Below are positions 6,867 to 55,899 of a DNA stretch of 64,000 nucleotides, piece after piece (position 1 is the stretch's first letter; each line of letters opens with the position of its first letter). The notes below the pieces were generated by a model. The model was given only the letters and a program-made list of their open reading frames with translations, made no database searches and was not told where the DNA came from. The translations under genes were made by a program, and so were the position numbers. Source of the DNA: an uncultured Pleurocapsa sp. (GTDB taxonomy: Bacteria; Cyanobacteriota; Cyanobacteriia; Cyanobacteriales; Xenococcaceae); the NCBI GenBank assembly GCA_965365755.1, contig CBDUCX010000001.1, positions 3,162 to 67,161 on the forward strand. The letters are read 5' to 3'.

Positions 6867-7501
6867 GGGAATCAGGAAGTAAGGGTTTTTTCTATCTAGG
6901 ATTGTTCAGCGAGCTTGGTATAAATTATTCAATAGCTGAACGTATCTCTCCTTAAAAGTGCGATCGCCTAAAATTAAAGAATACTCGCTCATATAGTCTC
7001 ATAATTTAGGCAGGGCTTGTTTATATCTTAAGTTGTATTACCTATGTTTAACTCTTACTAGAAGTAGATAAAGGTTGATTAATTTACTCAAATTCGTCAT
7101 TAGAGTTGTTTGGAAATAAGAACCAATATGCTCTGAAATAACTTTACGTAAAAGATTGAGACTTTTCTTTGATGACAAAAACTGAAAGTTTTGTGTGTCG
7201 AGAGTTTTAGTAAATTTTAAAGCTATTTCTCAACAAGTGTATTTACTAATACGTCCAGAAAAAATTTATTTCTCAATTAGATTAATTATGCAACTTTAGT
7301 TAGAGGTAATCTCTAGGTAATGTCGATAGGTTGTAACTGTAAGCAAGCTTTACTTTAGCAAACCTACCTAGAAATAGAGAATCTTAGGTCGTAGCTGTCC
7401 TTTCTAAAATGATTGAGGTTTGCTATTAGAGTAATTGTAATAATTACCCTTCAGCAGATTTTTCCCCTAGCAGAAATTAACTATAGGTAAAATTTTTTCT
7501 C

Positions 7502-7918
7502 ATGAATAACCAGAACAAATTAACAAAGATTTTTCAACAATTAAGGCTTAGTAGAATTGTCACTGCTTTTCTTTTAGCAACAGTTTTATTAATAACCACA
7601 GCCTGTAATAGTGGCGATAAACTCGCTGCGCGTCCTCATAATTCTTCTGTTACCCCTACTTTATTAGCAACAGCTAATCAAAGCGAAACCACCTATCCCA
7701 ATGACGATCGACAAATGGAAGGTTTGCTTTATTCAAATTCCAATGAAGTGAAATCTTTAAATAGTGTCGATGATTTTGTCAGTCCCCAAAGACAAAAAGA
7801 ATTATTAGACCCCACCCAAATTCCTGCTAAGAAACAGCCAATTATCGACCGCTCCGATCCTAATAACAAGCTTTTGGAAAAAACCGTACAAATGTTTAAG
7901 GATGCTACCGATTTTTAA
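7502..7918 (+). CDS. Hypothetical lipoprotein (stress/desiccation-associated type)
   Basis: Signal peptide with lipobox LITTAC and hydrophilic body. Confidence 0.6.
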   Translation: MNNQNKLTKIFQQLRLSRIVTAFLLATVLLITTACNSGDKLAARPHNSSVTPTLLATANQSETTYPNDDRQMEGLLYSNSNEVKSLNSVDDFVSPQRQKELLDPTQIPAKKQPIIDRSDPNNKLLEKTVQMFKDATDF

Positions 7919-7990
7919 CCGCGGAATGCGGTCAGCGCAGGCACCGTCGTTTCATATGGGTCGCGGTATCCTCTAGGACGGCGGTGTAAC
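7919..7990. repeat. GC-rich imperfect hairpin, probable REP-like dispersed repeat
   Basis: Nested stems GTCAGCG/CGCTGAC and CACCGTCGT/ACGGCGGTG. Core ATGGGTCGCGGTATC resembles the elements at 14507-14544 and 37284-37329. Confidence 0.5.
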
Positions 7991-8039
7991 GCTGACTAAC
8001 CAAATAGATGTGTAATTGTAAATAAGGAAAGAAACAACT

Positions 8040-8603
8040 ATGTCACAAGAATTACAAGGTATTAATATTGCCATTTTACTCACCGATGGCTTTGAACAGG
8101 TTGAGATGACTAAACCTCGCCAAGCATTTAACGATGCAGGTGCAAGTACCTATTTAATCTCTCCTGCGGGAGAACAAGTACAAGGATGGAATCACTACGA
8201 TAAAGGCGATCGCTTTAAAGTCGATCTCCCTTTAGATAAGGCTAATCCCGATGATTATGATGCGCTGCTACTTCCTGGTGGGGTAGCTAATCCAGACCAA
8301 CTAAGAACTAATGAAACAGCCGTTAAGTTTATTAAAGCTTTTTTTGAAGCAGATAAACCAGTGGCAGCCATTTGTCATGGTCCTTGGACTTTAATCGAAG
8401 CGGAAGTAGTTAAAGGACACAAGATTACATCTTGGTCTTCCTTAAAAACCGACCTCATCAATGCAGGTGCCAACTGGGTAGACGAAGAAGTAGTGGTAGA
8501 CGGTAATTTAATCACCAGTCGCAACCCTAACGATCTGCCCTGGTTTATCAACGCGGCGATCGCTTTATTTTCTAGCCAAAAAGCCAGACTTCAATCTGTT
8601 TAG
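8040..8603 (+). CDS. pfpI: PfpI/DJ-1 family glyoxalase/deglycase (YhbO-like)
   Basis: DGFEQVE, LPGG..NPD.LR, AICHGPW and SRNPND motifs. Confidence 0.9.
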   Translation: MSQELQGINIAILLTDGFEQVEMTKPRQAFNDAGASTYLISPAGEQVQGWNHYDKGDRFKVDLPLDKANPDDYDALLLPGGVANPDQLRTNETAVKFIKAFFEADKPVAAICHGPWTLIEAEVVKGHKITSWSSLKTDLINAGANWVDEEVVVDGNLITSRNPNDLPWFINAAIALFSSQKARLQSV

Positions 8604-8951: not shown

Positions 8952-11315
8952 CTATTTCGGCAAGTAAACTATAAAAGTAGCTCCCTGTTGAGGTTGACTG
9001 CAAGCTACAATTTTACCCTGATGGCGTTGAACGATCTTGTCACAAATAGCTAAACCCAAACCCGTACCTGCATATTTACTTTGACTATATAGGCGGTGAA
9101 AGGGAGTAAAGATTTTCTCTTGTTGTTCTGGTTCAAAGCCAATACCGTTATCGATAATGTTTATCTGATAAAAGTTATTGTCTGTCGGGCTTTGAGAGAT
9201 TTTAATTTCTGGAGTGCGATCGCTGGCGTGAAATTTGAGGGCATTTTGCAGTAAATTTTGAAATAGCTGTTGTAACTGGGAGCGATCGCCTGTAACGGTG
9301 GGTAATTCCCCAATTTTTATTTGGGCTTGGATACGACTAATTTCTGGTTCGAGATCGTATAAGACATCTTCGACAACATCTTTAAGGGATACTGGGGTAA
9401 AAGGCTGTGCTTGGGTAGTGATGCGAGCGTAGGTTAATAAGTTGACAATCAACGCTTTCATTCTTAAATTTAAGCCAGTCATTTTGGTTAAATATTCTCT
9501 GCCTTCTTCGTCTAAAACTGCACCGTAATCTTCTTGTAGAGATTCAATAAATAAATTTTGTTTGCGTAGGGGAGAAATCAAATCGTGAGATACCACACTG
9601 GCAAATTCTTCTAATTCCTGATTACTGCGTTCGAGTTCTTGTAATAAAGCGTTTAATTTAGCTTCAGCTTGTTTACGTTGGTTGATATCTTGAATTTGGG
9701 CAATAAAATATAGCGGTTTGTCTTCAATATCTTTAACCAGAGAAACGCTCAATAAAATCCAAATCCAACGACTAGAAGCCTGAAGATAGCGTTTTTCCAT
9801 TTGATAAGTACGAATTTCTCCCGCCAGCATTTGTCGCACATAATTAAGATCGAGGTCGAGATCGTCGGGATGGGTAATTTCCTGAAAAGTTTTTTGCAGT
9901 AATTCTGCTTCACTGTAACCGACAATTTCGCACAAAGAGCGATTAACTTTAATAAACCTCCCGTCAGGAGAAACTAATGCTTCTCCCGTAGCAGCATCTT
10001 CAAAGGCTAGCCGAAATCTTACTTCACTTTCTCGCAACTTGGCTTCTATTTCTTTGAGGATGGTAATATCTCGCCCTACCGCTTGATATTCGCTAATTGC
10101 TCCTGCTTTATCCAATATTAGCCGATTGTTCCATTGATTCCAACGCACCTTGCCGTTGACCCACACCCGATGGGTAATAGTTACGGTGGGATTAGTTAAG
10201 CTCATGGAGTTAATCTTTTGAGTGACTAGATCGCGATCGCGATCATAAATTAGAGGCGCAAATGGGCGATCAACTAATTGCTCTTTTTTTACCCCAAAGT
10301 AGCGACAGTAAGCTTCATTGACAAAAGAAATCGTGGAATCTGGACGATAGCGACAAATTAGTTCGGTTTGATCTTCCACAATTGCCCGAAATCGTGTTTC
10401 GGCTTCTAGTAAATTGGCATATAATTGCTGTCGCTTGCGATCGCTTTGATTTAATTTCCGAGCCATCCACCAGACAAGAAAGCTTAAAATCAATATTTCT
10501 AGAGTAATTGTGAGAGCGATCGCTATTTCCGAAGCTTGAGGCATATCTGGCACAAGCCACCAAATCAAACCACCTAGCACAGGAGGAACAATTATCATCA
10601 GAGGCAATAACCAACGAGCCATCACCCCCCCTGCTTCTTTTCTGGTCAATACTCGCATCCAACCCCTTTCTGAACGAGTAGCCAGCAAAGCACCAGACAA
10701 CAAAAGAAAGCCAATACTAGTGTGAATTGCCACCCCTGTGGACGAACCAGCAGTATAGAGGAGACGGACATAATAGAGATGTCCGATTAGACTAGCAGCA
10801 GCGATCGCTAAAATGCCAATTATTAATAGTTGAGCAGTTAAATAATATTCTCGAACTAAACATAAAATTGCCGTATTCAGTAGTAAAAATCCCCAAGCGG
10901 TGGGAGGCGACATTCTACCTCGAACTACCGCATCTATTGCATCGGGAGAATCGGGCAAGGCAAGCCAACTTGTACCTAAATCGAGGTTAAAACCATATTC
11001 AATTAAAGTTATTAAACTAAAAGCGATCGCGATACTAGGTAAGAGATACAAGGCAACTCTAACAATTACACGCTGATTCTTTTGCTGTTGATGCCATAAC
11101 AGTAAAGCAATTCCCCCCATGATCAAACCAAGAGCGGTACTAACTTTCATGGTTACCCGATGGGCAATAATGCTTTTGAGCCAAGTTATGTCAAACAGCC
11201 AACCCACAATGACACTACTGCCTAAACAAATAACAATCATACAGATAATTATCGACGCATAACGTAGTTGACTGGGTAATTTAGCTGCTTGCGATCGCTT
11301 TTGGATGAGGGACAT
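8952..11315 (-). CDS. Orphan membrane sensor histidine kinase: multi-TM - PAS - PAS - HisKA - HATPase
   Basis: Several N-terminal hydrophobic helices. PAS motifs (FVNEAYC; THPDDL). H-box VSHDLISPLR, QNLLQNALKF, DNGIGF and GTGLGLA. Confidence 0.9.
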   Translation of the reverse strand: MSLIQKRSQAAKLPSQLRYASIIICMIVICLGSSVIVGWLFDITWLKSIIAHRVTMKVSTALGLIMGGIALLLWHQQQKNQRVIVRVALYLLPSIAIAFSLITLIEYGFNLDLGTSWLALPDSPDAIDAVVRGRMSPPTAWGFLLLNTAILCLVREYYLTAQLLIIGILAIAAASLIGHLYYVRLLYTAGSSTGVAIHTSIGFLLLSGALLATRSERGWMRVLTRKEAGGVMARWLLPLMIIVPPVLGGLIWWLVPDMPQASEIAIALTITLEILILSFLVWWMARKLNQSDRKRQQLYANLLEAETRFRAIVEDQTELICRYRPDSTISFVNEAYCRYFGVKKEQLVDRPFAPLIYDRDRDLVTQKINSMSLTNPTVTITHRVWVNGKVRWNQWNNRLILDKAGAISEYQAVGRDITILKEIEAKLRESEVRFRLAFEDAATGEALVSPDGRFIKVNRSLCEIVGYSEAELLQKTFQEITHPDDLDLDLNYVRQMLAGEIRTYQMEKRYLQASSRWIWILLSVSLVKDIEDKPLYFIAQIQDINQRKQAEAKLNALLQELERSNQELEEFASVVSHDLISPLRKQNLFIESLQEDYGAVLDEEGREYLTKMTGLNLRMKALIVNLLTYARITTQAQPFTPVSLKDVVEDVLYDLEPEISRIQAQIKIGELPTVTGDRSQLQQLFQNLLQNALKFHASDRTPEIKISQSPTDNNFYQINIIDNGIGFEPEQQEKIFTPFHRLYSQSKYAGTGLGLAICDKIVQRHQGKIVACSQPQQGATFIVYLPK

Positions 11316-11485
11316 GGAAAGGTACTGGGTGATTTTTCCTCAGAGTGGGAAATATTGCTTTGGTTAGATACATCTAAGGGCAAGGTTGAAGTTAAATATT
11401 AAAAGAACCAATTTATTTTAAGATCTTGGCAAATCCGCTTCAGCAACAGAAATTTTTAATCAAGTAAACATTTCTATAATTTATT

Positions 11486-11803
11486 ATGATCTCAATTTTA
11501 ACGAACTTGATCGCCGTAGTTTTGGTGAGTATGGCGATCGCTTTATGTTCTGCTAATTCGGCTCTAGCGGATACAGTTAAATCCAACAGCAGCGATACTT
11601 TACGACAAGCAGCCCAAGAAGTAGTCAAAAACACGGGAGTTAAAGAGCAGTTCGGTCAATCGGAAAATGGCGATCGCCTGTTAGACCAAGCTCAAGAAAA
11701 AGCCAGCCATAAGCTAGACAATCTAGCGCAAGAGGCTGATTCCGAACCAGAACTTCCCGCAAGTAAAAAGCTATTTATCAAAAATTTAACCAATCAATCG
11801 TGA
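11486..11803 (+). CDS. Hypothetical secreted protein
   Basis: Signal peptide ending in ALA, followed by a Q/E/K/A-rich helical body. Confidence 0.6.
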   Translation: MISILTNLIAVVLVSMAIALCSANSALADTVKSNSSDTLRQAAQEVVKNTGVKEQFGQSENGDRLLDQAQEKASHKLDNLAQEADSEPELPASKKLFIKNLTNQS

Positions 11804-11849
11804 CTTTTCATATTTATGGTCTAATAAAAAATCAGAGGAGTAATAAGAA

Positions 11850-12023
11850 GTGAATCAGCAAAATTTAGGCGAGTAAGCTATTGCTAAAGTGATAGAAATT
11901 GTCGTAGATAGTCAATTAGATAGAGTTTAAAATGCTATGTTTAAAATTAATAGAATCGATCTCAAGCAGGGCAAAATAACTCTCGGTGGTAAAGCTTTAA
12001 TCAACGACTTCCCAACACAATAA
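11850..12023 (+). pseudogene. Probable DUF2993 (LmeA-like) remnant: N- and C-terminal stumps only
   Basis: RBS GAGGAG then GTG-NQQNLGE*AIAKVIEIVVDSQLDRV*, followed by MFKINRIDLKQGKITLGGKALINDFPTQ*. Both resemble my recollection of the termini of cyanobacterial DUF2993 proteins. Confidence 0.4.
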
Positions 12024-12237
12024 TTAACTATAGTCGGTTGTTAATTTTGATACATTATATTTTTTTTGTTGGGGTAATTGAGAAGAATTTATACAAGTTT
12101 AATTTGTATTACTCATTACTTGATTTTACTAAGTAATTTAACTATTTAATCACGCCCAATCTCGGTGCAATATTCTTTGTTTTACTCGGTATCTTTGGCT
12201 TGGCATTTCCTCCTTGTGATGGGTTCGGAAGGATAGA

Positions 12238-12292
12238 TAGTTAGTAGTTAGTAGTTAGTAGTTAGTAGTTAGTAGTTAGTAGTTAGTAGTTA
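12238..12292. repeat. Heptamer tandem repeat (TAGTTAG) x ~7.9 at the 3' end of mnmE
   Basis: Direct reading of the sequence; STRR-like cyanobacterial repeat. Confidence 0.95.
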
Positions 12293-12296
12293 TTAT

Positions 12297-13673
12297 CTAC
12301 TTTCCGATACAGAAGCGGCTAAAAATTCGGTCTAGTACAGATTCCGTGACTTCTTCTCCCGTAATTTCTCCTAGAGCTTGAATTGCGCCCCTGAGGTCAA
12401 TTGTCCAAAAATCCAACGGCAGTTGATTGGCGACAGTTTCTTGTACTTGTTCTAAGGCTACTTTAGCCCTGGTTAAAGCAGATGCCTGTCTTTGATTAAC
12501 TGCCACTTCAGAGTTAGCTGCCGTAACTGATCCCTGACGAGTTAAGGAAAGAATCTCTGTTTCTAAATCCGTAATCCCCTGATTATAGGCGGCACTAGTG
12601 TAAACTACCTGCTGGATCTCTGGGGGGTATTTAACCGACTGGGGAGAAGCTAAATCGGCTTTATTGATTACCAGAATTAGAGGGTAATTTTTGACCTGCT
12701 CATATATTTCCCAGTCGGCAGTTGTCCAGCCCAGTTGAGCGTCAACGGTTAATAAGACTAAATCTGCCGTTGCTGCTGCGTCACGCGATCGCTCTACTCC
12801 AATTTTTTCTACAGTATCGGCAGTTTCTCTAATCCCTGCAGTGTCTAATACTTGGACGGGAATTCCCCCCACAACCAAAGTGGACTCAATCACATCACGA
12901 GTTGTCCCTGGAAGATCGGTCACGATCGCGCGATCGCTTTTACTCCAAGCATTAAGTAGGCTAGATTTCCCAACGTTAGGACAGCCGACAATCGCCACTT
13001 TTAAGCCATTTCTCAATAATTCTCCTTGTTCTGCCGTAGCTAAAATATGTTCAACTTTAAGCAATACTTGCTGTAGTTGCTGTTCAATTTCTGCTTCATT
13101 TAGAGGTGGAAGATCGTCAGCAAAATCAATTCTGGCTTCCACTTCCGCTAAAATATCCAAGCAAACATTTCTCAAATCGCGAATGGGACTGCCTAGTTTG
13201 CCCTGTAAACCAGCTAAAGCAACTTGCGAGGCGGCTTGTGATTGAGCAGATACTAATTCCGCAATACTTTCAGCTTGAGTTAGATCAATTCTACCGTTAA
13301 GGAAAGCTCTTAGACTGAATTCCCCTGGTTGAGCTAATCTCGCTCCTTGAGTAACGCACAGTTGCAAAACTGATTGCACCGCAATAATCCCACCGTGGCA
13401 GTGAAATTCCACTACATCTTCACGGGTAAAAGAACGGGGTTGTAGCATTAAAAGTAATAATGCTTCGTCTACCACCTGTTTCGTTTCAGGATGACGAACA
13501 TAACCATAAAGAATGCGATGAGTTGACCATTCCTGCTTTCCTGGAGAGTGAAATAGGGTTTTAGCGATCGCCAGAGACTTGGCTCCTGATAAGCGCACAA
13601 TACCGACACTACCCTGCTGTGGCATGATAGCAGTGGCGATCGCAACTATGGTTTCTCCCTGAACTAAAGACAT
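12297..13673 (-). CDS. mnmE: tRNA modification GTPase MnmE
   Basis: [27 protein letters not shown] and C-terminal FCIGK. Confidence 0.97.
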
Positions 13674-43960: not shown

Positions 43961-45169
43961 AGATCAGGCTAAAAATACCCGTACCATTCATGGGAGGGGA
44001 TGAAAAGCCTAGGAAATTAGATAGCTCGATGCCATTTAATTTTTTAATTTCGTAATCATTCTATAGGCTTACAAGAAATTTTATTTTATGGTAAGCTTTG
44101 GAGATGAAACAACTCAGAGGTTTTAAGTATCGACTATACCCCACTTCGGCGCAGCGATTAGAGTTAGCCCAGACATTCGGTTGCACTCGCTACGTCTACA
44201 ATTGGGCACTAGCACTTAGAACCAGTAGCTATTACCAAGAAAACAAGCCACTGAGCTATACAGATACATCCAACGCTTTAACCAAACTCAAACAAGATCC
44301 TGAGAAATCTTGGTTGAAAGCCGTTTCTTCTGTGCCATTGCAGCAAGGATTGAGACACTTGAATACAGCCTTTAAAAACTTTTTTGAAGGCAGAAATAAA
44401 TATCCTAAGTTTAAACAGAAAAATAACCGTCAATCTGCTACCTACGCCAGATCTGCTTTCACCTGGAAAGACGGTAAATTAACTCTGGCCAAGATGAAGC
44501 AGCCATTAAAAATCAAGTGGAGTAGATATTTCACTGGGGAACCAAGGAGTATAACTATATCTAAAGACCCCAGCAACAGATACTTTGTTTCGTTCTTGGT
44601 TGAAGAGGAATTAGAGCAGTGGAATAAAGTCGAAGGTAAAATCGGGATTGATTTAGGCATCAAAGACGTGGTTGTTGGCAGTAACGGATTCACTTCCGGC
44701 AACCCCAAGCACGCTTCAAAATATCAAGGGAGGCTGAAAACTCTACAACGCAGATTAGCCAAGAAAAAGAAAGGTTCAAACAACCGATACAAGGCCAGAC
44801 TTAAAGTAGCAAAGCTCTATGCTAAAATAGCCGATTGTGGCTGGGGTGAAGCATTACGCCAGTTCCAATACAAGTGCAAATGGCATGACCGAGAATTGGG
44901 GGCAATAGACAGATGGTTTCCATCATCTAAACGTTGTTATCCCTGCGGTCATATTTTGGATAAGCTCCCTCTAGAGATTAGAGAGTGGGTTTGTCCTAGC
45001 TGCAACTCCAATAATCAAAGGGACAAAAATGCAGCGAAAAATATTTTAGCCGTCGGGCAGACGGTGTTTGCTTGTGGATCTGGCACTGGCGGGGAGGTAG
45101 ATCTTCTATCTCTAGCTATCCAGGGATGAATCAAGAATCCTACCTCCTTTTAAGGGGTGGAAGCGTCAA
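43961..45169 (+). mobile_element. Non-autonomous IS200/IS605-family element (tnpB only)
   Basis: Left-end hairpin AGGCT..TACCCGTACC..GGGAGGGGA..AGCCT (43966-44030). Right-end hairpin TCCTACCTCCTTT..GGGGTGGA ending in the canonical TCAA (45166-45169). No tnpA. Left boundary approximate. Confidence 0.85.
44104..45129 (+). CDS. tnpB: TnpB with in-frame deletion of the RuvC-II region (predicted nuclease-dead)
   Basis: HTH FKYRLYPT, RuvC-I GIDLG, Zn finger C..CG/CPSC and RuvC-III RD.NAA.NI are present. KIADC is fused directly to GWGE, and no catalytic Glu segment is present. Confidence 0.85.
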   Translation: MKQLRGFKYRLYPTSAQRLELAQTFGCTRYVYNWALALRTSSYYQENKPLSYTDTSNALTKLKQDPEKSWLKAVSSVPLQQGLRHLNTAFKNFFEGRNKYPKFKQKNNRQSATYARSAFTWKDGKLTLAKMKQPLKIKWSRYFTGEPRSITISKDPSNRYFVSFLVEEELEQWNKVEGKIGIDLGIKDVVVGSNGFTSGNPKHASKYQGRLKTLQRRLAKKKKGSNNRYKARLKVAKLYAKIADCGWGEALRQFQYKCKWHDRELGAIDRWFPSSKRCYPCGHILDKLPLEIREWVCPSCNSNNQRDKNAAKNILAVGQTVFACGSGTGGEVDLLSLAIQG

Positions 45170-45530: not shown

Positions 45531-47522
45531 TTAATCCAACCAATAGGTTTGTCGCTGAAAAGGATAGGTAGGGAGACTAATTTTTCTACCGGCAATGTTC
45601 TTTGCCCAAGGTTCCCAATCTATAGTTACTCCTAATATATATAGTTGAGCAAGCCCAGCCAGCAATATTTGCCAATCATCTGATTCTGGCTCGATTTGAG
45701 AAAAAATAGTATTTTGGTGCTCGTTATTTTCTCTGGTTTGTTTCTCGCCTATCTCCCAAACAATATTACCTGTATCGGGTGAAACTAGAGAATTACTAAT
45801 GATAGATTCGATTAACTCCTTTAGCTCGTTATTTGCTTGTTCAGATATCAATGCCAATTTTAGTTCCTGATTAAGATTGACTTTCCCCTGCCATAATTCT
45901 GATGATCTTTCCTCGGCGATAAATTGAGTTAATTTAGTTTGCAAGTCTGTGGTAGAAGTGACAGTAGTAGCTAATCGGTAGTTAAAATGCGATCGCCCAA
46001 CATTAGCTGTATAACAAATATCTTCTATTAAAAGATCAGGATGTAATTGTAGATAATCAAGATAATTAATAGCCAGTTGCCGTAAAGCCTTCTTATTCCT
46101 GGCAGATAAAGTAAACAGGTGTAAATTTCCCCCTTGTCCCCCTTGTCTTTCCCATTTCTCAACATCCCCATCAGCTTCCTGAACAATAATATGGGCATTC
46201 GTACCACTAAAGCCAAAACCACTAACACCAGCTATACGAGGTTGTGCCGTTTGCTTCCAGGCGATCGCTTCTAGTGGCAGTTGAAAGGGTAAATTTTGCC
46301 ACTCTAGATTATTATTAGGCTGTTTTAAATGAAGATTAGCTGGAATAACTTGATTTTCTAAAACCAGAACAGTTTTAATCAAGCTTGCTATCCCCGATGC
46401 CGATTCTAAGTGACCAATGTTAGTTTTAACCGCACCCAGAACTAATTCTTGGTTGTCGGAAAAGATTTGACTAAGAGCCTCAATTTCGATCGCATCTCCT
46501 AAAGATGTTCCTGTACCATGAGTCTCTAGGTAACTTACCTGTTGTGCCGTAACTTTACTATTAACTAAAGCTTGTTTAATTACCGCCTGTTGGGAGAGAC
46601 TATTGGGAGTAGTAATACTGCTGGTACGCCCATCCTGATTAGTAGCCGAACCTAGTAAGATAGCTCTAATACGATCACCATCTGCGATCGCATCATTTAA
46701 TCTTTTTAAGAGGACAATTCCGCAACCCTCGGATCTCACGAAACCATTGGCACCCTGATCAAAAGTCTTGCAGCGTCCATCAGGAGACAGCATTTTTGCC
46801 TGAGAAAAATTAACGCTAATTTTAGGAGAAATCAGACGGTTTACCCCCCCTGCTAACGCCATATTGCACTCGCGATCGCGTAAGCTTTTAATAGCTAGGT
46901 GTACTGCAACTAAAGAAGATGAACAAGCCGTGTCGAGAGACATACTTGTGCCAGTGAAATCAAAAAAGTGAGATATGCGTCCAGATGCCAAACTATGAGT
47001 ATTACCCGTAGTAAGATAGGCATCAATCTCTGTTGTTTTTCTACTCAGTAGTTGATGCCAATAATCTGTAGCTGAGACACCAATAAACACCCCCGTCTGA
47101 CTTCCCTTAATTTTGTCTGCTGGTATAGCTGCATTTTCCAAAGCCTCCCAACTAACCTCCAGCAATAACCTTTGTTGCGGATCGAGACTAGCGGCTTCTC
47201 TGGGGGCAACGCGGAAAAAACTTGCGTCGAATTCTTTAAGATGAGGCACAAATCCACCATAGGTAGTGCAGATTTTTCCTGGTGTATTCGGTTGAGGGTC
47301 ATAATACTTTGATCTATCCCAATATTCATCAGGAATCTGAGTAATCGCATCTCTCCCCTCTCGTAATAACTGCCAAAACTCCTCTGGATTATCTGCGCCA
47401 GGAAAACGACAACCCATCCCCACCACAGCAATTGGCTCCTGTTTAGCCTGTTCCAGAACATCCAATTTGCTCTGCATTTGTCTCAATGCGAGTAAAGCTT
47501 TTTTCGTGGGGGATAGATTCAT
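45531..47522 (-). CDS. Standalone type I PKS ketosynthase (docking domain - KS - linker; no AT, no ACP)
   Basis: EPIAVVGMGCRFPG, active-site DTACSSS, HGTGT and NIGHLE. Post-KS linker leads into LAQLY..G..IDW..LPTYPFQR..YW, then stop. Confidence 0.88.
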   Translation of the reverse strand: MNLSPTKKALLALRQMQSKLDVLEQAKQEPIAVVGMGCRFPGADNPEEFWQLLREGRDAITQIPDEYWDRSKYYDPQPNTPGKICTTYGGFVPHLKEFDASFFRVAPREAASLDPQQRLLLEVSWEALENAAIPADKIKGSQTGVFIGVSATDYWHQLLSRKTTEIDAYLTTGNTHSLASGRISHFFDFTGTSMSLDTACSSSLVAVHLAIKSLRDRECNMALAGGVNRLISPKISVNFSQAKMLSPDGRCKTFDQGANGFVRSEGCGIVLLKRLNDAIADGDRIRAILLGSATNQDGRTSSITTPNSLSQQAVIKQALVNSKVTAQQVSYLETHGTGTSLGDAIEIEALSQIFSDNQELVLGAVKTNIGHLESASGIASLIKTVLVLENQVIPANLHLKQPNNNLEWQNLPFQLPLEAIAWKQTAQPRIAGVSGFGFSGTNAHIIVQEADGDVEKWERQGGQGGNLHLFTLSARNKKALRQLAINYLDYLQLHPDLLIEDICYTANVGRSHFNYRLATTVTSTTDLQTKLTQFIAEERSSELWQGKVNLNQELKLALISEQANNELKELIESIISNSLVSPDTGNIVWEIGEKQTRENNEHQNTIFSQIEPESDDWQILLAGLAQLYILGVTIDWEPWAKNIAGRKISLPTYPFQRQTYWLD

Positions 47523-47615: not shown

Positions 47616-47837
47616 TCATTCCGATGGTGATAAATAAGGAATTTCATCGTCTTCAACCACAATTACTTCATAAGGGGAAGATGCTTTTTTTATTTTATCC
47701 AAACAGTTCAGTTTGGGTTTACTAGTGTAAATCTTGATGGCATTTTGGGAACGATTTATACCCAACCCATGAATACCTTCCTTGCCTAAAAAATCTTTTT
47801 GCAAGCGTTTTTTTGTTTCTTTTAAGTTATCAGACAT
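47616..47837 (-). CDS. Small hypothetical protein resembling a protease pro-domain
   Basis: 73 aa with FL..EGIHGLGI...AIKIY, similar to the N-terminal pro-region pattern (..VVGVGIG..) of Nal1-type S1 proteases. Confidence 0.45.
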   Translation of the reverse strand: MSDNLKETKKRLQKDFLGKEGIHGLGINRSQNAIKIYTSKPKLNCLDKIKKASSPYEVIVVEDDEIPYLSPSE

Positions 47838-47863
47838 AGCTAACTATCTCCATTTGTTTTAAT

Positions 47864-48388
47864 TTATAAAAGCTCTATTTGTAACTGACTAAGTACTACA
47901 TCAATTTGGTTAGCAATACCGTATGTTCCTGAATCTGGCCCCGCAAAATATAACCCCACTGCTTTATTATCCCCTTTAGAAACTATCAAAGAGCCACTGT
48001 CGCCTCCCAAAGCAAAATAGGGAGCAGTAGATAGACGATCAATACGAAACTGGTCTTCAAATTTTGCTACTATATTTGGATTATTATGATCGATACCTAC
48101 ATTGATATCTAGGGACTCATCTGTTACTATCCCCTCTGTATATCCGCTTGTACGACCATGTTTGACGACTTCCATATTTTCAATTGCAACATCAGTACCA
48201 GTAATCGAACCAATAGAGCAGATAGAAACTTGATAGTTTATATTAGCATCAACAGTAGCGATCGCAGCATCAACTTCATTAACTGTTTGACCTCCTAATT
48301 GCAGTTGAACCATACGATGTAATTTAGCAACAGTGTCTACCGAAGTTCCAGTATCCAAAACTCCTGGTTGATAGATGTCATCCCCCTT
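47864..48388 (-). pseudogene. C-terminal half of a trypsin-like (Nal1-type) serine protease
   Basis: KGDDIYQPG..D, VDAAIA, K.GRTSG.T.G and GGDSGSL motifs. The frame is open only up to the stop of the upstream gene, and the catalytic-His segment is absent. Confidence 0.7.
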
Positions 48389-49049
48389 ATCTAGTTACTA
48401 AGGCGATGGCATCAAAATCTGTACCAGGGTCTTCTAATTGATTTCCGTCACTATCTACCGCCACTAATCTGACAGTAACTTCACCTTCATCAGCTAAATT
48501 ACGAATACATTCTGTTGTATCCAGATAAAGTGTAAAAGGAGCAACATGAGAAGGAGGTCTAAGGTCAAATTTTCCACGGCGAACACGGTCAGGATCGCAG
48601 TGTCCCTCATCTCCTGCACACTCTCCATGTCCAAAGAAATATAAAGAGCCAGCATAATTACTATTGTTATTAGTTTCCGTGCTCGCGTCAGCATCAGGTT
48701 GATTTAAAAAGACACGCATTTCAAAAGAGTTTCGAGGATGTTTAACATTATGAAACTGTAATTCCGCTTCCTCAAAATCTGATTCTAATTGTCCCAAAGC
48801 AAAACCAACCACAGGGGCAGTAAATTTAGATGGGGCTGCTGCTGAAGCGGTAACGAGAGGGGAGGGAGTAATTTCTGAGGTAATATATTCATATATAAAT
48901 GCTTCTCGTAAAGCAGCTAGTTCATCAGAAGATAAATTACGGATATTCTTACGGTAGCGAATAGCATCTTCATCTGCTACGTAATCACCAGCAACTCTTG
49001 CTGTTACTCTTTCTTCACTGGGATTAAGTTTCGCCAAGATAGTAGTCAT
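48387..49049 (-). pseudogene. Tyrosinase/polyphenol oxidase lacking the dicopper core (in-frame fusion of N-terminus to C-terminal domain)
   Basis: RYRKNIRNLSSDELAALREAF joins directly to IYEY and a PPO-type C-terminal beta domain (RVFLNQPDA..YAGS..FGHG.C.GD.GHC). No CuA/CuB His motifs. Confidence 0.65.
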
Positions 49050-49255
49050 GTCTTGAATACTCCATGTTTTATTAAGGCGATCGCACTTGTTAGAATGCCT
49101 AGCACGATCACGTATACATAGATTTTTACAATCTAACTACTAATAACTAGAATTTATCAAGGCTTTTTTACGCAAAATGATTTTTCTCTTAATGTTTCGT
49201 AACTGAAAACCTACTTATGGCAACATTTCTTCACTTGAGATGGAAGTTGTAATAC

Positions 49256-49738
49256 TTAATTTATCACTAAAGAAATAGAAGCAACATCCAGTTTTTGATC
49301 ACTTATATCATTTCCGTGAGCATCAACAGCAACTAATTTAACTGTTAATTCCGAATTCTCTGGTGCTATTTTTCTGAGATTAGTCGTAATATCGAGATAA
49401 AGAGGGAAAGGACTAGTATTTGATGCACCGGGACTCAAATCTAATTCTGGAGTCAGAGTGGCTTCTTGTCCATTGGAATCAAGATATTCACCTTGTCCAT
49501 AAAAGTATAAAGAACCAGCAAAGTGTTCATTTTCTTCTATGTTAGTATTAGCATTGGCATCTGGTTGGTTTAAAAACACCCTTAATTCAAAAGAATTTTT
49601 GGTATGTTTAACTTTATTGAACTGTAATTCTGCTGTCTGAAAATCTACTGCTAGATGTTGTAGGTCGAACTTAGCTATGGGTTGATGAAAGTTGATAGAT
49701 GCAATCATTACAGTTGTTATTGCAGCGATTGTGAACAT
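49256..49738 (-). CDS. Standalone paralogue of the tyrosinase C-terminal domain with hydrophobic N-terminus
   Basis: AELQFNKVKHTKNSFELRVFLNQPDANA aligns with AELQFHNVKHPRNSFEMRVFLNQPDADA in the 48387-49049 ORF. Confidence 0.7.
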   Translation of the reverse strand: MFTIAAITTVMIASINFHQPIAKFDLQHLAVDFQTAELQFNKVKHTKNSFELRVFLNQPDANANTNIEENEHFAGSLYFYGQGEYLDSNGQEATLTPELDLSPGASNTSPFPLYLDITTNLRKIAPENSELTVKLVAVDAHGNDISDQKLDVASISLVIN

Positions 49739-50276
49739 TTTCTTTTTTGGGTAACTAGGTAACTATACTCTTCTTATATTGGCTGCTTACTTATATCTAT
49801 TCTAACTAGACTTGATGTAATTCTGTATAAAGTCCAATGTCATCTCATATAGATGCGACAAACTACGTGCTTTTTTACCCCTCCAAATTAACGCTCTTGA
49901 TGATCACAATACTCAGTCTGATAGAATCACTGAAGAAAAATTAGATTTTTGCTGTTTGTCCCATAACATTTTTAAATGCTAAAAGTCAAGATTTTCTCTA
50001 AGCTATTTGCATTTAATTGTTATTTTAAAGAACTCGTAACCAGAAATTTAAAGACGAATGAACCAATAAAATAATCCCCAACCAAATTAGTGATTTGTTA
50101 CCTCAGACTAAATATTCTAAAATAAAACCAAGAATATTATTAAAAAAAACCTAATTATCATAAAGAAACTGTGACAACAGTGTAAATAAACGGTATATTT
50201 CTTATAATGTCAATTAAGATCAAATAATATTATGTTTGATTAGGCATAAACAATTAGATACAAGTTAAAGTAAATT

Positions 50277-50669
50277 ATGAATGAAACTGCTACAGCACCA
50301 TTGACGGGGAAAGCATTACTACAAAAAGTCAAAGAGCTATCCCATTTGCCAAGACGCGAAACCGCTAAAAAATGTGGATATTTTACGATTACTAAACAAG
50401 ATCAAACTCGCGTAAACTTAACTGATTTTTACGATGCTGTACTTGCTGCTAAAGGAGTTCCTTTAGATCCAGAAGGAGCAAAAGATGGTCGTGGACGGGA
50501 ACCTACTTATCGCGTAAGTGTTCATAAAAATGGGCAAATTGTTATCGGTTCTACTTATACCCAAGCAATGGGTTTGAAAGAAGGTGACAAATTTGAAATC
50601 AAATTAGGGTACAAACATATTCATCTCAAGCAGATTGATGGAGAAGAAAATGGTGCCTCAGACAACTAA
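50277..50669 (+). CDS. cyabrB1: Cyanobacterial AbrB-like regulator (Sll0359/CalA clade)
   Basis: LTGKALL.KVKELSHLPRRETAK and GRGREPTYRVSVHKNGQIVIG motifs; followed by a CAAX protease as in Nostoc. Confidence 0.85.
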   Translation: MNETATAPLTGKALLQKVKELSHLPRRETAKKCGYFTITKQDQTRVNLTDFYDAVLAAKGVPLDPEGAKDGRGREPTYRVSVHKNGQIVIGSTYTQAMGLKEGDKFEIKLGYKHIHLKQIDGEENGASDN

Positions 50670-51595: not shown

Positions 51596-52702
51596 TTATG
51601 GTATTGTTTGAAGTTGAACTCTTTCTTTAAGATGATTCATCCATGACGGTTCAATCATTTTGTCATGCTGTAATCTTCCTACAACAATACCTGGATGAAT
51701 ACCTATATCTTGAGCAAAGGAAGTGACCGCAGCCTTAGACTTTAGTTCGGCTAATTCTGATTGATAAGTGGGTGGAATTAGAAAGTCTCGTGACCATTGA
51801 TCAGCTTCATTTTCTTGCTCTGAGACAAGCTTTTTTCCACTGTCCCATTCATCAAGAAAAATTTGATCTTTCCCATGCAGCAGAATGTGAGCAACCTCAT
51901 GAAAGAATGTAAACCAAAACTTATCATTACTTTTCCCATACAGTGATAATTGAATCATTGGCTTATGAGGGTTTAGCCACCGAACGACACCGCTAACATG
52001 AGCTTTGGGAATAGATGGCACTAGAGCAAAAACTACTCCAGACTCTCTGCATAAGCGTTTAATCTCTGGCAAGAATTGTTCTGCTGGGAGTACAGTAAGT
52101 TTTCTAATTTTACGAATTGCCTGTTGAAATTTAGCTTTATTATATTTTGGACAGTTTTGTCTTTCTGCTTCAATTTCACCCAACCTTAGCCAACTAGAAA
52201 TCGCACCAATATTGCTCTGTCTTGTTCTGGTGCGGCGGTAAGCAAGCTCCAGCCCTGAATAGCATTTATAGTAATCATCAGGGGAAGCTACTCCAAAAAA
52301 TAGCAGCATTTCTTTGACTATGGTAGGTTTATGTTTAGCAATCAGACGACGAGTAGCAATCACTTCCTGCTTCATCAGCTCTTTGACTGGTAATTCATCG
52401 AGCCAATCAACCCATGACTCTAAAAGCTTTTTTTCCTCAATCTGAGCTAGTTGAGCGCGATAGTCTGCTTCACGATTTAACCAAAATTTCTCTGTACTAC
52501 CTAAAACTTTTGTTAGCTTGAGGGCTGTATCTTCAGTTATGGGAGCTTTCCCATTGATTAGTTGACTGACGTGCTTTGTGGTATATCCCAACCTCTCTGA
52601 GAGTTTTACCTGCGTCCAGTCTCTTTCCTCAAGTAGATCAGCGATGGTATCACCTGGAGGAGAAACCCAATCGGGAGCAAATTCGAGTGTGGTTTCAGTC
52701 AT
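51596..52702 (-). CDS. higA: HigA antitoxin fused to an ImmA/IrrE-type metallopeptidase
   Basis: SPPG..I..LL HTH, FWLNREA and FFHEVAH zincin motif. Start placed at ATG 52702, overlapping the higB stop. Confidence 0.88.
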   Translation of the reverse strand: MTETTLEFAPDWVSPPGDTIADLLEERDWTQVKLSERLGYTTKHVSQLINGKAPITEDTALKLTKVLGSTEKFWLNREADYRAQLAQIEEKKLLESWVDWLDELPVKELMKQEVIATRRLIAKHKPTIVKEMLLFFGVASPDDYYKCYSGLELAYRRTRTRQSNIGAISSWLRLGEIEAERQNCPKYNKAKFQQAIRKIRKLTVLPAEQFLPEIKRLCRESGVVFALVPSIPKAHVSGVVRWLNPHKPMIQLSLYGKSNDKFWFTFFHEVAHILLHGKDQIFLDEWDSGKKLVSEQENEADQWSRDFLIPPTYQSELAELKSKAAVTSFAQDIGIHPGIVVGRLQHDKMIEPSWMNHLKERVQLQTIP

Positions 52703-53024
52703 GATAATCTCCAATAAATACGATAAGTACAGCAGTAACCTCTGACCAATCGATACCGCCATCCTCTTTTCGGGGTAGAGATTCATTAGCTGGCTCAAAA
52801 ACCAACCTTTTCCCCCCATCAAGTCTTACAGCATATTGACCCAGGCGATCGCCCTTTAAAGGATGAGGTTTTCCTGTTACAAGATCTGTAACTGACTCAG
52901 CAGCCTTAAGGTCTGCCAATCGAGCGCGTAGTTTTTTGGCGCAGTTAGCCCCCAACTTTTTTTGAGCTTCCCGTGATTTGTCACATAGCTTCTTGAGTTG
53001 ACTATTGAGGTAGGTTACTTCCAT
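52695..53024 (-). CDS. higB: HigB/RelE family toxin (killer suppression type)
   Basis: HPLKGDR.GQYAV.L.GG.RLVF motif. Confidence 0.88.
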   Translation of the reverse strand: MEVTYLNSQLKKLCDKSREAQKKLGANCAKKLRARLADLKAAESVTDLVTGKPHPLKGDRLGQYAVRLDGGKRLVFEPANESLPRKEDGGIDWSEVTAVLIVFIGDYHD

Positions 53025-53256: not shown

Positions 53257-55899
53257 ATGGGCAGATATATCTTATCCGAGTTCAACCCGTCAGTTGATTT
53301 AGAGTTTGAATTTCCAGTTATTACGCCAAGTAAAGCGATCGCATCATACCTCAAAGTACCCCACTATAGCTTATTAAGTTTGACTCAAAATATTGTCCGT
53401 CGTCAGGGTATTGGTATTGCTTCTGCTTTATTGAGTCGGCGTTTGCTACAAAATGCGGTGAGGGAAGTCGTTGACACCAAGGATATTGAAGGGACAGCGA
53501 AGGCGTTTTTATCTATTATTAAAGATTTATTTCGTAGCGGGATAGATTTATCAAGACTGCAACAGAATCCTGATACTAGGATGCAACAGTTGGGTAATCT
53601 GGCTGTGGCTTATAGAAATCAGTTAAGACAAATGAATCGTATTGATGCTGCGGAATTATATTGGCAAGGTGCGGTTGAGATTACTTACCAAAAAGCTTAT
53701 GTATTCTATGGTTATTTTGCTCCAGGTAAAGATGAATTAAAAGTCATAAATGCGATCGCAGGACAGGATAGTATTTTAATATTGCCTCTAAATGATTTAT
53801 ATCCTCAAAATCAACAGGCTTTAAGTTGGTTGCAATCTCAGGGGTGGGAATTAATCGAGAGTAAGTCAAAAAATACTACGGGCATTAATCATCAACTACA
53901 GCAGTGTTTTAAGCAGACATCGCCTCTCCCGTTACCAACAGGAGTATGTTTAAATATTTTTGCTAATTTAGCAGAGGAAGTACGAGGAGTATTAACTCAG
54001 GTCAAGGTTTTGCTATCTCAAAAAGTTGCGACTCAGGATATTGTTTTAGTAACTAGAGAAGAGCAGCTATATGGTGAAACTCTAATGGATCTTGCCTGGG
54101 AATATAATTTGCCTGTGCAGGTATCCTATGAAATTCCCCTACAACAAACCCGTATTGGTGCCTGGCTGAAATTATTACTGGAGGTGATTAGAGATAACTT
54201 TCCTTTTGAAACCACCGCTAAGTTACTATCTCATCCTTTAGCTAACTATATGTCGGCGGGAATATGGTTGCAAGCCAGACAAACTCATCCCCATGGCATA
54301 ACAGCCTGGCAAGAATTAGGCATAGATCTCAGCCTACTTGATTTTCAAGATAATTATCATCGCCCTGTTTGGGTTAATCGTTTACTTGATATCCTGTCCA
54401 CCTGGGATGTCTTAGAAAAAGCTAAATTCTGGGCACGGGAAATAGTCGCCTACTACCGTTTACAGGAAGGATTAAAAGAATTAATCAAACCAGAACAGCA
54501 AAAACTGAGTAAATCAGCTTTTATTAACGAAATTAATGAAATATTAGCTTTATTGACGGTTCCTGCCCAACCAGGGATGGGCGGAATTGAACTGCATTCC
54601 CCTACCGCTTTACTCGGTACGAATTATCCCCATGTCTTTGTATTAGGTAGTGCAGAAGGCATATTGCCAGCAGCGATCGCCAGCGACCCAATTTTAGACT
54701 TTCATAGTCGTAAACAGTTAGCTAAACAAGGTTTAAATATTAACACCGCCGTTGATCTTGCCCAGCAGGAAACCTGGGATTTTTACTGTTTGTTGAATGT
54801 TCCCACTAAAAGCATTACTTTTTCTTACCCCGAATTAGTTGATAAAAGCCCCGTCATAGCAAGTCCTTATCTAGATCGTTTAGGATTAAAACCAACTCCT
54901 GTTACTAATTTACCCATAGCTAGTATTGAGCGAGCGCGTCAACTATATCTGCGTCAACCAAATTCATTAAAACCTGAAGTTTGCGCTTCCCTGAGAATAC
55001 CTCAAATTACCCAAGCCTTACAAGTAGAAGCACGAAGAGAAAGTGCAGTCGCACCAGACGAATATGATGGTGTAATTGGTATTACTATCGATCCGCAACG
55101 TAAGATTTTTAGTGCCTCTCAGTTAACACAATTAGGTCAATGTCCCTTTAAATGGTTTAGCGCGCGGTTACTAAAACTCAAAGAATTAAGCGAAGCCGAA
55201 TCCGATCTTGGTGCAGCGATGCGGGGTAATCTCTACCATCGTTGTTTAGAATTATCCTTAGCCCAGATCAAAACCGCCAGTGACTTAGCCAAATTCAATC
55301 AAGCACAATTAGCCCAAGCCTTTGCCACCGCCGAACAAGAATTAAAACTAACTGAATTACCAGGCTGGGAGGCTCAACGTCAAGAACATCTTAATTTACT
55401 TGCGCTTAACTTAGCCACTGCTGAATTCTTACCTGCTGACAGAGAAGTCATTACCACCGAAACCAAGTTTGACATGGAATGGCATGGCTTACAAATACAG
55501 GGACAGGTAGACAGAATTGATCGCACCCCCGCAGGATTAACCGTAATCGACTACAAGACTAGTGGTGTCACCCCCGCAGGAGTAAAAGACGAGACAGGTA
55601 AAGCCAATCTTGATATCCAATTAGCAGTATACCAAGATGCGATCGCCGAACAATACCCCGAGGAAACCATCGACAGCGCAGCCTACTATTCCCTAACCCA
55701 ACAAAAAACCATTAGTCGTCCGCAAAAAGACCCCGCAGAATTAGCCGCCTTTGCCCAAAAGGTAAAATCTCATTTAGAACAAGGATACTATCCCGTTGCC
55801 CCAGATAGCGATCGCAAAGCCTGTCGCTATTGTAATTATGATCTAGTTTGCCGCCAGGGTGATCGGCTTAGTCGGAAAAACGACACAAAAATTTGTTAA
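53257..55899 (+). CDS. AddB/RexB-like protein: degenerate helicase body plus C-terminal PD-(D/E)XK nuclease with 4-Cys Fe-S staple
   Basis: SASQL..GQCPFKWF, RGNLYH, GQVDRID, VIDYKT and CRYCNYDLVC motifs. Confidence 0.82.
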   Translation: MGRYILSEFNPSVDLEFEFPVITPSKAIASYLKVPHYSLLSLTQNIVRRQGIGIASALLSRRLLQNAVREVVDTKDIEGTAKAFLSIIKDLFRSGIDLSRLQQNPDTRMQQLGNLAVAYRNQLRQMNRIDAAELYWQGAVEITYQKAYVFYGYFAPGKDELKVINAIAGQDSILILPLNDLYPQNQQALSWLQSQGWELIESKSKNTTGINHQLQQCFKQTSPLPLPTGVCLNIFANLAEEVRGVLTQVKVLLSQKVATQDIVLVTREEQLYGETLMDLAWEYNLPVQVSYEIPLQQTRIGAWLKLLLEVIRDNFPFETTAKLLSHPLANYMSAGIWLQARQTHPHGITAWQELGIDLSLLDFQDNYHRPVWVNRLLDILSTWDVLEKAKFWAREIVAYYRLQEGLKELIKPEQQKLSKSAFINEINEILALLTVPAQPGMGGIELHSPTALLGTNYPHVFVLGSAEGILPAAIASDPILDFHSRKQLAKQGLNINTAVDLAQQETWDFYCLLNVPTKSITFSYPELVDKSPVIASPYLDRLGLKPTPVTNLPIASIERARQLYLRQPNSLKPEVCASLRIPQITQALQVEARRESAVAPDEYDGVIGITIDPQRKIFSASQLTQLGQCPFKWFSARLLKLKELSEAESDLGAAMRGNLYHRCLELSLAQIKTASDLAKFNQAQLAQAFATAEQELKLTELPGWEAQRQEHLNLLALNLATAEFLPADREVITTETKFDMEWHGLQIQGQVDRIDRTPAGLTVIDYKTSGVTPAGVKDETGKANLDIQLAVYQDAIAEQYPEETIDSAAYYSLTQQKTISRPQKDPAELAAFAQKVKSHLEQGYYPVAPDSDRKACRYCNYDLVCRQGDRLSRKNDTKIC

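Follow-up and report, generated by a model that had tools for sequence, protein, structure and literature searches.

The stretch of DNA analyzed here (the window) is 64,000 nucleotides from an uncultured Pleurocapsa sp., contig CBDUCX010000001.1, positions 3,162 to 67,161. Between positions 47616 and 49738 of the window lie four open reading frames (ORFs) on the minus strand – a free C-terminal domain of the tyrosinase/polyphenol oxidase (PPO) type, a tyrosinase remnant, the 3' part of a trypsin-fold protease gene, and a small ORF related to the protease. What the window carries is a recently decayed, non-functional allele, and otherwise an ordinary one. We consider it probable that a composite four-gene locus, joining two separately conserved modules, has recently become a natural null allele here, with a functional link between the modules being possible. 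What makes the locus valuable is its intact allele, found in other assemblies, together with what comparison shows about the two modules.

The first ORF (160 aa, 49256–49738) is intact in the window and encodes a "class-2" paralogue of the C-terminal domain, referred to here as C2. The tyrosinase remnant (220 aa) is at 48387–49049. It is followed by the remnant of a protease similar to rice NAL1, codons 184–356, at 47864–48385; the 164-aa ORF listed for it covers 47864–48358 with a TTG start, and the frame is open back to 48394. The last ORF (73 aa, 47616–47837), intact in the window, was identified as the partner of the protease from homology and from its position in 79 loci. The G+C content of the region is 33–41%, similar to the surroundings.

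Alignment of the 220-aa ORF to the intact tyrosinases of Stigonema (L001) and two Eremiobacterota (L002, L003) showed which parts remain. The ORF keeps residues 1–52 (RYRKNIRNLSSDELAALREAF, with RKNI..L..ALREAF), followed by the post-core YEY, a linker of about 30 aa, and a class-1 C-terminal domain. Its N-terminal RKN..L motif and its post-core IYEY align with the motifs of all three intact enzymes, and the whole CuA/CuB core, with all six copper-binding histidines, is gone. The ORF has no match to PF00264, and a tblastn search for the copper core elsewhere in the window found no trace of it. The 164-aa ORF corresponds to residues ~184–356 of a NAL1-type protease that has a trypsin fold and a length of ~360 aa, and is 53% identical (E 5e-53) to the C-terminal half of the protein encoded at 7434–8522 of locus L005. 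It retains the Asp (VDAAI) and Ser (GDSGS) of the catalytic triad, without the His (SNNHV). Lacking the copper core and the catalytic His, neither the tyrosinase nor the protease can work in the window.

An intact form of the locus, from a sister population, is found on a 10.8-kb contig, L254, whose flanks are 99.7–99.9% identical to the window on both sides. L254 encodes C2 (160 aa, identical in protein sequence to that of the window), a 439-aa tyrosinase, an 86-nt spacer, a 356-aa protease, 26 nt, the 73-aa ORF and a ketosynthase (KS) gene, in that order. The tyrosinase matches PF00264 with an E-value of 2.1e-42, and its His motifs GIHG, CAHG, WHR, HNGLH and WAHH are readable. It is a cytoplasmic-looking enzyme in which a di-copper core, a linker of about 30 aa and a PPO-type beta-sandwich C-domain are fused. 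The protease (P0223) shares a 90%-identity cluster with the window fragment and is 100% identical to it over the remnant; its triad is complete (SNNHV, VDAAI, GDSGS), and it has no signal peptide. Within the 86-nt spacer (7984–8069 of L254), most of which is deleted in the window, there is a G/C-rich hairpin of 9 bp (TTGAGGGGG...CCCCCTCAA), preceded by a T-run and followed by an A-run. This was considered as a terminator and rejected, since neither strand has a T-run behind the stem and a terminator scan reported none.

Comparison with L254 by blastn and from the junction sequences shows that the window differs by two deletions. The first, with its junction at 48893–48895, removed 657 bp in frame (tyrosinase codons 53–271) and with them the whole copper core. 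The second, with its junction at 48385–48386, removed 634 bp – the 86-nt spacer minus its first base and protease codons 1–183, so that both the N-terminal domain and the catalytic His are lost. Both junctions, read on the minus strand, have 1–3 nt of microhomology, and the window allele arose by two simple illegitimate-recombination deletions.

The deleted form is present in the window, in contigs L008 and L009, in one Logan contig, and in runs X1, X2 and X4, from marine sediments. The intact form is present in L254, which was also recovered from mangrove run X3, in L255, and in run X7. The X7 sequence comes from a relative ("organism A") ~95% identical to the window, with tyrosinase and protease intact and in the same order. 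Contigs from X7 and X18 continue into unlike sequence at 48894, the site of the first deletion, and X7 and X3 carry 634 extra nt at the site of the second when placed on window coordinates. L008 and L009 are 99.3–99.9% identical to the window, and the orthologues in Iphinoe are saturated at synonymous sites. No haplotype with a single deletion was seen among the typed assemblies and runs, the first junction being uncovered in X4. In these samples the intact allele comes from mangrove metagenomes (X3, contig L254) and X7, and the double-deletion allele from marine-sediment metagenomes (X1, X2, X4); a link of the alleles to phenolic-rich settings is possible, on very few samples.

Short reading frames such as these could in principle be chance frames, or the deletions could be errors of assembly, and the shortness of the ORFs is the one feature that speaks for this. 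The explanation is refuted by the homology E-values, which range from 1e-32 to 1e-53, and by finding the deleted structure in five or more independent assemblies or runs and the intact structure in three or more. Because the same four-ORF state recurs in independent assemblies (L008, L009, X1, X2, X4), it is not an assembly artefact. The original prediction, made from the letters of the window, is confirmed in its observations and partly supported in its interpretation. It had described four co-oriented genes, a PPO-type C-domain in a standalone and a fused copy, a tyrosinase N-terminal motif fused to Y-x-Y and that domain, and the catalytic C-terminal half of a GDSGS protease, and had called the module "decayed here" from an intact ancestor, which L254, L255 and X7 now document.

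With 47% identity (E 1e-38), the 160-aa ORF is a paralogue of the last 150 residues of the 220-aa ORF. All Pfam scores of the domain (48387–48830 for the class-1 copy of the window) are below threshold – 23.0 bits for DUF7868 (cut-off 25), 16.9 for PPO1_KFDV (26) and 15.5 for Tyrosinase_C (26.9). An AlphaFold2 (AF2) model gives a beta-sandwich (predicted local distance difference test, pLDDT, 70.8; predicted template modelling score, pTM, 0.68) with a disordered loop at residues 73–100. The best solved match to this model in Foldseek is the C-terminal domain of the Ralstonia tyrosinase TYR (7xio; E 2.6e-5, template modelling score 0.60), and further matches are to latent aurone synthase (4z11-14), tomato PPO (6hqj), the isolated C-domain of apple PPO (6elt/6elv) and 6els, as well as to Hahella tyrosinase (8b74) and mollusc haemocyanin units. 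The same regions are matched by a profile built from the family's sequences (7xio at E 0.008, 6hqi at E 0.3). Because both the Foldseek and the profile matches point to the C-domains of latent tyrosinases and PPOs, the domain is, judged from its modelled fold, one of the PPO-type C-terminal domains.

Two features of this domain suggest how it may act. The first is an invariant Phe (Phe70 in the model), which in a weak profile alignment (E 0.32) pairs with Leu447 of 6HQI, the C-terminal placeholder, or active-site plug, of tomato PPO (PMC10526336). The second is an invariant class-1 loop, F-G-H-G-x-C-x-G-D-x-G-H-C, represented by FFGHGECAGDEGHC in the class-1 domain of the window, which places Cys75 and His81-Cys82 after Phe70 in a part of the model with pLDDT below 50. 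By alignment and analogy, the Phe may be a plug and the His/Cys loop a means of copper delivery. C2 is without the His/Cys loop and has Tyr in place of the plug Phe. Its orthologue in Iphinoe is encoded at 10701–11195 of L090.

A word-indexed search with the 220-aa ORF found three relatives, while an exhaustive search with a C-domain profile found 699 clusters (E ≤ 1e-3). Among the best 149 of these 699, 121 are free-standing proteins shorter than 260 aa, and 118 of the 121 keep the H..C...HC motif. Ten relatives were scanned against Pfam. All eight long ones with the domain at the C-terminal end are tyrosinases, and of the other two, one is a hydrolase-fold protein of 268 aa that carries the domain C-terminally and one a free-standing protein of 152 aa.

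With a genome scan by an alignment of 13 C-domain sequences, the set of tyrosinase loci came to 83 (L090–L169 and L001–L003). In every one, a tyrosinase core is encoded directly upstream of the C-domain on the same strand – as a separate gene in 75 loci and fused to it in eight. The split loci lie in L093–L169, for example 9108–10480 of L135, an isolate genome (Paractinoplanes polyasparticus). In Iphinoe sp. HA4291-MV1 (L090), the closest relative, the tyrosinase has an intact orthologue of 450 aa and C2 a convergent one of 164 aa, with no protease nearby. Since the C-domain is a separate protein in 75 of 83 loci, it must, if its function is as we infer, act in trans like a caddie protein and be released without proteolysis. 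The suggestion that a free shield domain works in trans, put forward in the original prediction, is thereby strongly backed by comparative data.

Extra C-domain paralogues are carried by 13 of the 83 loci, always without the His/Cys motif. Besides C2 and its Iphinoe orthologue, these class-2 copies include 8485–8925 of L002 and others in L103, L109, L125, L130, L143, L162 and L163. They cluster by lineage, beside the class-1 domains from cyanobacteria, from Eremiobacterota and from Actinomycetota/Solirubrobacterales respectively, so class-2 paralogues arose at least three times. The plug column holds Phe in 82 of 84 class-1 domains and Tyr in 11 of 13 class-2 domains. Paralogues of the C2 type may form a second, substrate-mimicking cap.

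Bacterial tyrosinases have been described in three architectures – with a caddie protein encoded upstream, with a fused C-terminal extension, and with neither (PMC9454253). The enzymes of Verrucomicrobium spinosum (vsTyr), Burkholderia thailandensis (BtTyr), Ralstonia (TYR, 7XIO) and Hahella (Tyr, 8B74) have a type-3 copper core and then a beta-sandwich C-domain, like the family described here; in them a hydrophobic residue of the C-domain plugs the active site, and the latency of these pro-tyrosinases is lifted by removal of the C-domain (PMC10526336, PMC9454253). The C-domain of 7xio is also the best structural match of the window domain. Unlike those fused enzymes, this family has the invariant His/Cys loop and mostly a separate gene for the C-domain. 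Also, vsTyr has a Tat signal, whereas the cyanobacterial enzyme has none, and the window copy is without its catalytic core.

In Streptomyces, MelC1 is a separate small beta-rich protein that caps the active site with Tyr98, delivers copper, and is transcriptionally linked to the tyrosinase (PMC9454253, PMC11608171); Streptomyces alone is named as having "outsourced" the C-terminal domain's role in a 2024 review (PMC11608171). The Tyr at the plug position of class-2 paralogues may parallel this Tyr98 (PMC10526336, PMC11608171). No match to MelC1 (PF06236) was found at E-values up to 1, and the fold of the C-domain fits the PPO C-domains instead, so the two are not homologous. The gene order is also reversed relative to the mel operons, with the partner downstream of the tyrosinase in all 75 split loci and MelC1 upstream. 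In the fungal enzymes, Aspergillus oryzae MelB and Agaricus abPPO4, a beta-strand ends in a plug Phe, after which comes a disordered loop with Cys residues that is implicated in copper loading, and the layout here appears to be the same (PMC4157443). The fungal elements are the placeholder Phe454 and a CXXC "copper grappler" loop (PMC4157443). That CXXC stands against H-x-x-C-x5-H-C in this family; the sequence similarity is at fold level, and copper binding by this loop is putative. Searches of the literature gave no account of DUF7868, of a PPO-type C-domain encoded by its own downstream gene or of class-2 paralogues, which is not proof of novelty.

The other two ORFs form the second module. 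The closest solved relatives of the protease are rice NAL1 (E 1.7e-7) and then alpha-lytic protease. Pfam places NAL1_N before Nal1_C, mostly below the cut-off: P0223 scores 18.1 (cut-off 27) and 22.1 (cut-off 26.1) for the two, while the L018 protein reaches 27.4 for Nal1_C and P0019 reaches 33.2 for NAL1_N. Wherever the close subfamily of this protease occurs, a homologue of the 73-aa ORF is directly downstream of it; there are 79 such cassettes, which form 64 clusters at less than 80% nucleotide identity (L005–L007, L010–L037, most of L170–L230, and L250–L253). A profile-profile comparison (hhalign, E 2.3e-6) shows that the small ORF is paralogous to the N-terminal domain of the protease itself, in a short version. 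That domain matches residues 116–157 of NAL1, and so is placed in the ATP-binding domain (ABD) of NAL1. In NAL1 the ABD is the trimer interface, and activity requires the ATP-stabilised trimer and the hexameric cage (PMC12012508). The original prediction had likened the 73-aa ORF to a protease pro-region and proposed it as a trans-inhibitor. The likeness is loosely right, since the ORF does match the N-terminal domain of the protease, but that domain is ABD-like and not a known pro-region, and an inhibitor role would be hypothetical.

The rice cage protease appears to share its ABD-like N-terminal domain and its trypsin-fold domain with the bacterial protease. Compared with NAL1, the bacterial proteins are shorter (~360 aa) and mostly sub-threshold in Pfam. 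They always occur with a separate protein of 73–106 aa that copies the N-domain; the literature consulted showed no equivalent of it in plants.

The cassette is distributed patchily over many phyla, with unrelated neighbours. No Pfam family occurs more than twice among the 98 nearest neighbours of 27 cassettes, and there is no enrichment in polyketide synthase (PKS) genes. All-against-all clustering of the ORFs around the cassettes found nothing but synteny inside one Pelagibius group and spurious high-GC ORFs.

The protease of the cassette is often broken. There is a frameshift in L006 (2277–3381), a frameshift and a stop in L007 (4422–5482), split protease matches in L206 and L214/L215, and in-frame loss of the His-bearing part in L250 (380–1276) and L251 (6093–6686). 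The small ORF is intact in all of these loci. A natural two-gene protease was considered for L006 and L007 and rejected, as the frameshifts and stop are inside otherwise full-length genes. The deletions in L250 and L251 end a few residues from the position of the window junction, before G-D-x-x-Y/L-Q-P-G.

Under the explanation we prefer, the intact locus consists of a C2 paralogue, a fused pro-tyrosinase, a NAL1-like protease and a stand-alone copy of the protease N-domain. The first module would use its C-domain for plugging and copper delivery, mostly in trans as a separate protein, and the second is a self-contained cassette of a protease and a small protein. Activation of the fused cyanobacterial enzyme would require its linker to be cut, for which the adjacent protease is the obvious candidate. 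The alternative is a dedicated zymogen cascade in this lineage, with the NAL1-like protease as the physiological activator that would release the tyrosinase core from its C-terminal plug by cleaving the linker. The 73-aa paralogue would then regulate assembly or activity of the protease, C2 would re-cap or buffer the freed enzyme, and the loss of one partner would leave the other useless or harmful, explaining the double deletion. We regard this as a plausible, lineage-specific hypothesis, though one less likely than not.

A cascade would fill a known gap. Bacterial pro-tyrosinases of the fused type become active only once the C-domain has been removed, and their in vivo activator is not known; reviews have no data on how they are activated in vivo (PMC9454253). 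In vitro, trypsin activates vsTyr (PMC10526336). There is also a likeness to arthropod prophenoloxidase (proPO), another latent type-3 copper oxidase switched on by a serine protease, if the cascade is real. The arthropod system has an N-terminal shield and multiple steps with secreted clip-domain proteases, while here the shield is C-terminal and there is a single cytoplasmic-looking protease of the NAL1 type, in which Pfam scans found no clip domain.

The comparative data speak against a general tyrosinase and protease module of the kind that the original prediction had put forward as a candidate. No protease is found within 10 kb of the tyrosinase at any of the 83 loci of the tyrosinase family, including those of Iphinoe and Stigonema and all eight other fused enzymes. 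In the other direction, 61 of the 64 independent cassettes have no tyrosinase within 3 kb, and three, in two lineages, adjoin one. In L018 and L182 (Pyrinomonadaceae-like, 67–70% identical to each other in nucleotide sequence), a tyrosinase gene is followed after 140 nt by the protease and the small ORF. In L019 (Thermoanaerobaculia), the tyrosinase gene is tail-to-tail with the small ORF at a distance of 16 nt. Tabulating the neighbours of C-domain and 73-aa ORF homologues, the check that accompanied the original prediction, thus recovered the pairing in L018/L182 and L019, but found it to be far from general.

The linked cases differ among themselves. The three linked tyrosinases are of different subtypes and the linked proteases are not a clade, so the juxtaposition arose independently. 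It is also shallow, with L206, the nearest relative of L182, having no tyrosinase. Read by eye, the L018 tyrosinase has a signal-like N-terminus (MRTRARAGLSLLFVLSLGVLPLLLPA) and the proteases have none, a compartment mismatch that speaks against activation within the same compartment at that locus; in the cyanobacterial tyrosinase such a signal is absent. The C-terminus of the L018 tyrosinase gave no clear match to the C-domain profile (hhalign E 0.0066, probability 5.7%).

Two further observations concern these loci. Upstream of the tyrosinase in L018, a 120-aa ORF with no Pfam match (7817–8179, plus strand) resembles, by eye, the N-terminal extension of the 540–740-aa tyrosinases from the C-domain profile search (for example P0092 and P0117). 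The L019 tyrosinase (11315–13171, minus strand) has about 350 C-terminal residues with at least four repeats (FG.QGNFELVVP...GGLAHYWRNNDDP...), an appendage distinct from the PPO-type domain.

Several points weigh against treating the two modules as merely juxtaposed. In L018, L182 and L019 no more than 1.6 kb separates the tyrosinase from the cassette, and the other 1.4 Mb of DNA examined contains no tyrosinase. This adjacency exceeds chance, with P of about 0.007–0.08 for two independent cases against a background of 0.5–2 tyrosinase genes per Mb, and 0.0003–0.013 when the window lineage is counted too. The window lineage and L018/L182 share order and orientation, with spacers of 86 and 140 nt; in the former, the co-oriented arrangement is kept in the ~95%-identical relative. 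A terminator-like site was looked for in L254 and not found. Finally, both enzymes were deleted in the same haplotype, with no single-deletion haplotype seen. Proximity, shared order and co-deletion favour a real functional link over mere juxtaposition. The co-deletion fits coupling, as a single observation. The juxtaposition of tyrosinase and protease is lineage-specific, with a functional link being possible. A fuller version of the cascade we hold as speculative – that a self-compartmentalising protease of the NAL1 type activates fused pro-tyrosinases together with its N-domain partner, that C2, with Tyr at the plug position, is a trans cap or a sacrificial substrate, and that the window allele reflects co-loss of a coupled pair. 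Separately, the downstream C-domain with its His/Cys loop would be a fourth, previously undescribed architecture of bacterial tyrosinase systems, a caddie with homology to the C-terminal domain of eukaryotes.

The gene downstream of the four ORFs brings in another explanation, that the locus is a fragment of a natural-product cluster with the tyrosinase as a tailoring oxidase and the protease as a maturation enzyme. This gene (45531–47522, minus strand) encodes a 663-aa type I PKS protein that, by Pfam and NCBIfam, has a KS as its only catalytic domain. It begins 93 nt downstream of the 73-aa ORF, is co-oriented with it, and is present in both intact and deleted alleles (L254 and L008). Its product consists of the KS and the linker that joins a KS to an acyltransferase (AT), ends at the motif YPFQRQTYW, and has no AT or acyl carrier protein (ACP) domain; it may be a stand-alone KS or another remnant. 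Tyrosinase-like oxidases occur in some Streptomyces natural-product clusters. GriF and NspF are examples (PMC11608171). Here the KS is alone, with no AT, ACP, nonribosomal peptide synthetase or other tailoring gene nearby. PKS genes were not found in the ORF lists beside the Iphinoe and Stigonema tyrosinases or the other 80 tyrosinase loci, nor are they enriched beside the cassettes, and this explanation is highly improbable.

The KS gene is adjoined by a 343-aa ORF (44098–45129, plus strand) whose N-terminus, GFKYRLYPT..., resembles TnpB of the IS200/IS605 type by eye. On the other side of the four ORFs, a 130-aa AbrB-like gene (50277–50669, plus strand) is divergent from them and has by far the highest depth of metatranscriptome contigs (72–83 in X17). 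Metatranscriptome contigs from X13 and X17 span 49460–49775; among the four ORFs, the 5' end of the C2 gene has most of the metatranscriptome coverage. X18 adds two low-depth metatranscriptome contigs, one of them over the 5' end of the tyrosinase remnant. Beyond the cluster, Pfam matches on contig L008 identify a protein with HTH_3 and M78-peptidase domains, similar to ImmA/IrrE (51596–52822, minus strand), and an 880-aa PD-(D/E)XK protein (53257–55899, plus strand). None of the four proteins matched a defence system in PADLOC.

The intact locus on L254 and the Pyrinomonadaceae loci L018 and L182 provide concrete sets of a pro-tyrosinase, a protease and its partner for the question of how bacterial tyrosinases are activated. 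If the cascade were true, the protease would be the missing in vivo activator for fused bacterial pro-tyrosinases, in those lineages where the genes are adjacent (this cyanobacterium and a Pyrinomonadaceae lineage). A separate PPO-type shield domain with a His/Cys loop, encoded downstream of the tyrosinase, is a possible architecture absent, like the Tyr-bearing class-2 paralogues, from two reviews (PMC9454253, PMC11608171), which give only the non-homologous MelC1 of Streptomyces as an "outsourced" domain. If confirmed, it would bridge the caddie and C-terminal-extension modes of tyrosinase control, and would bear on the heterologous production of active bacterial tyrosinases.

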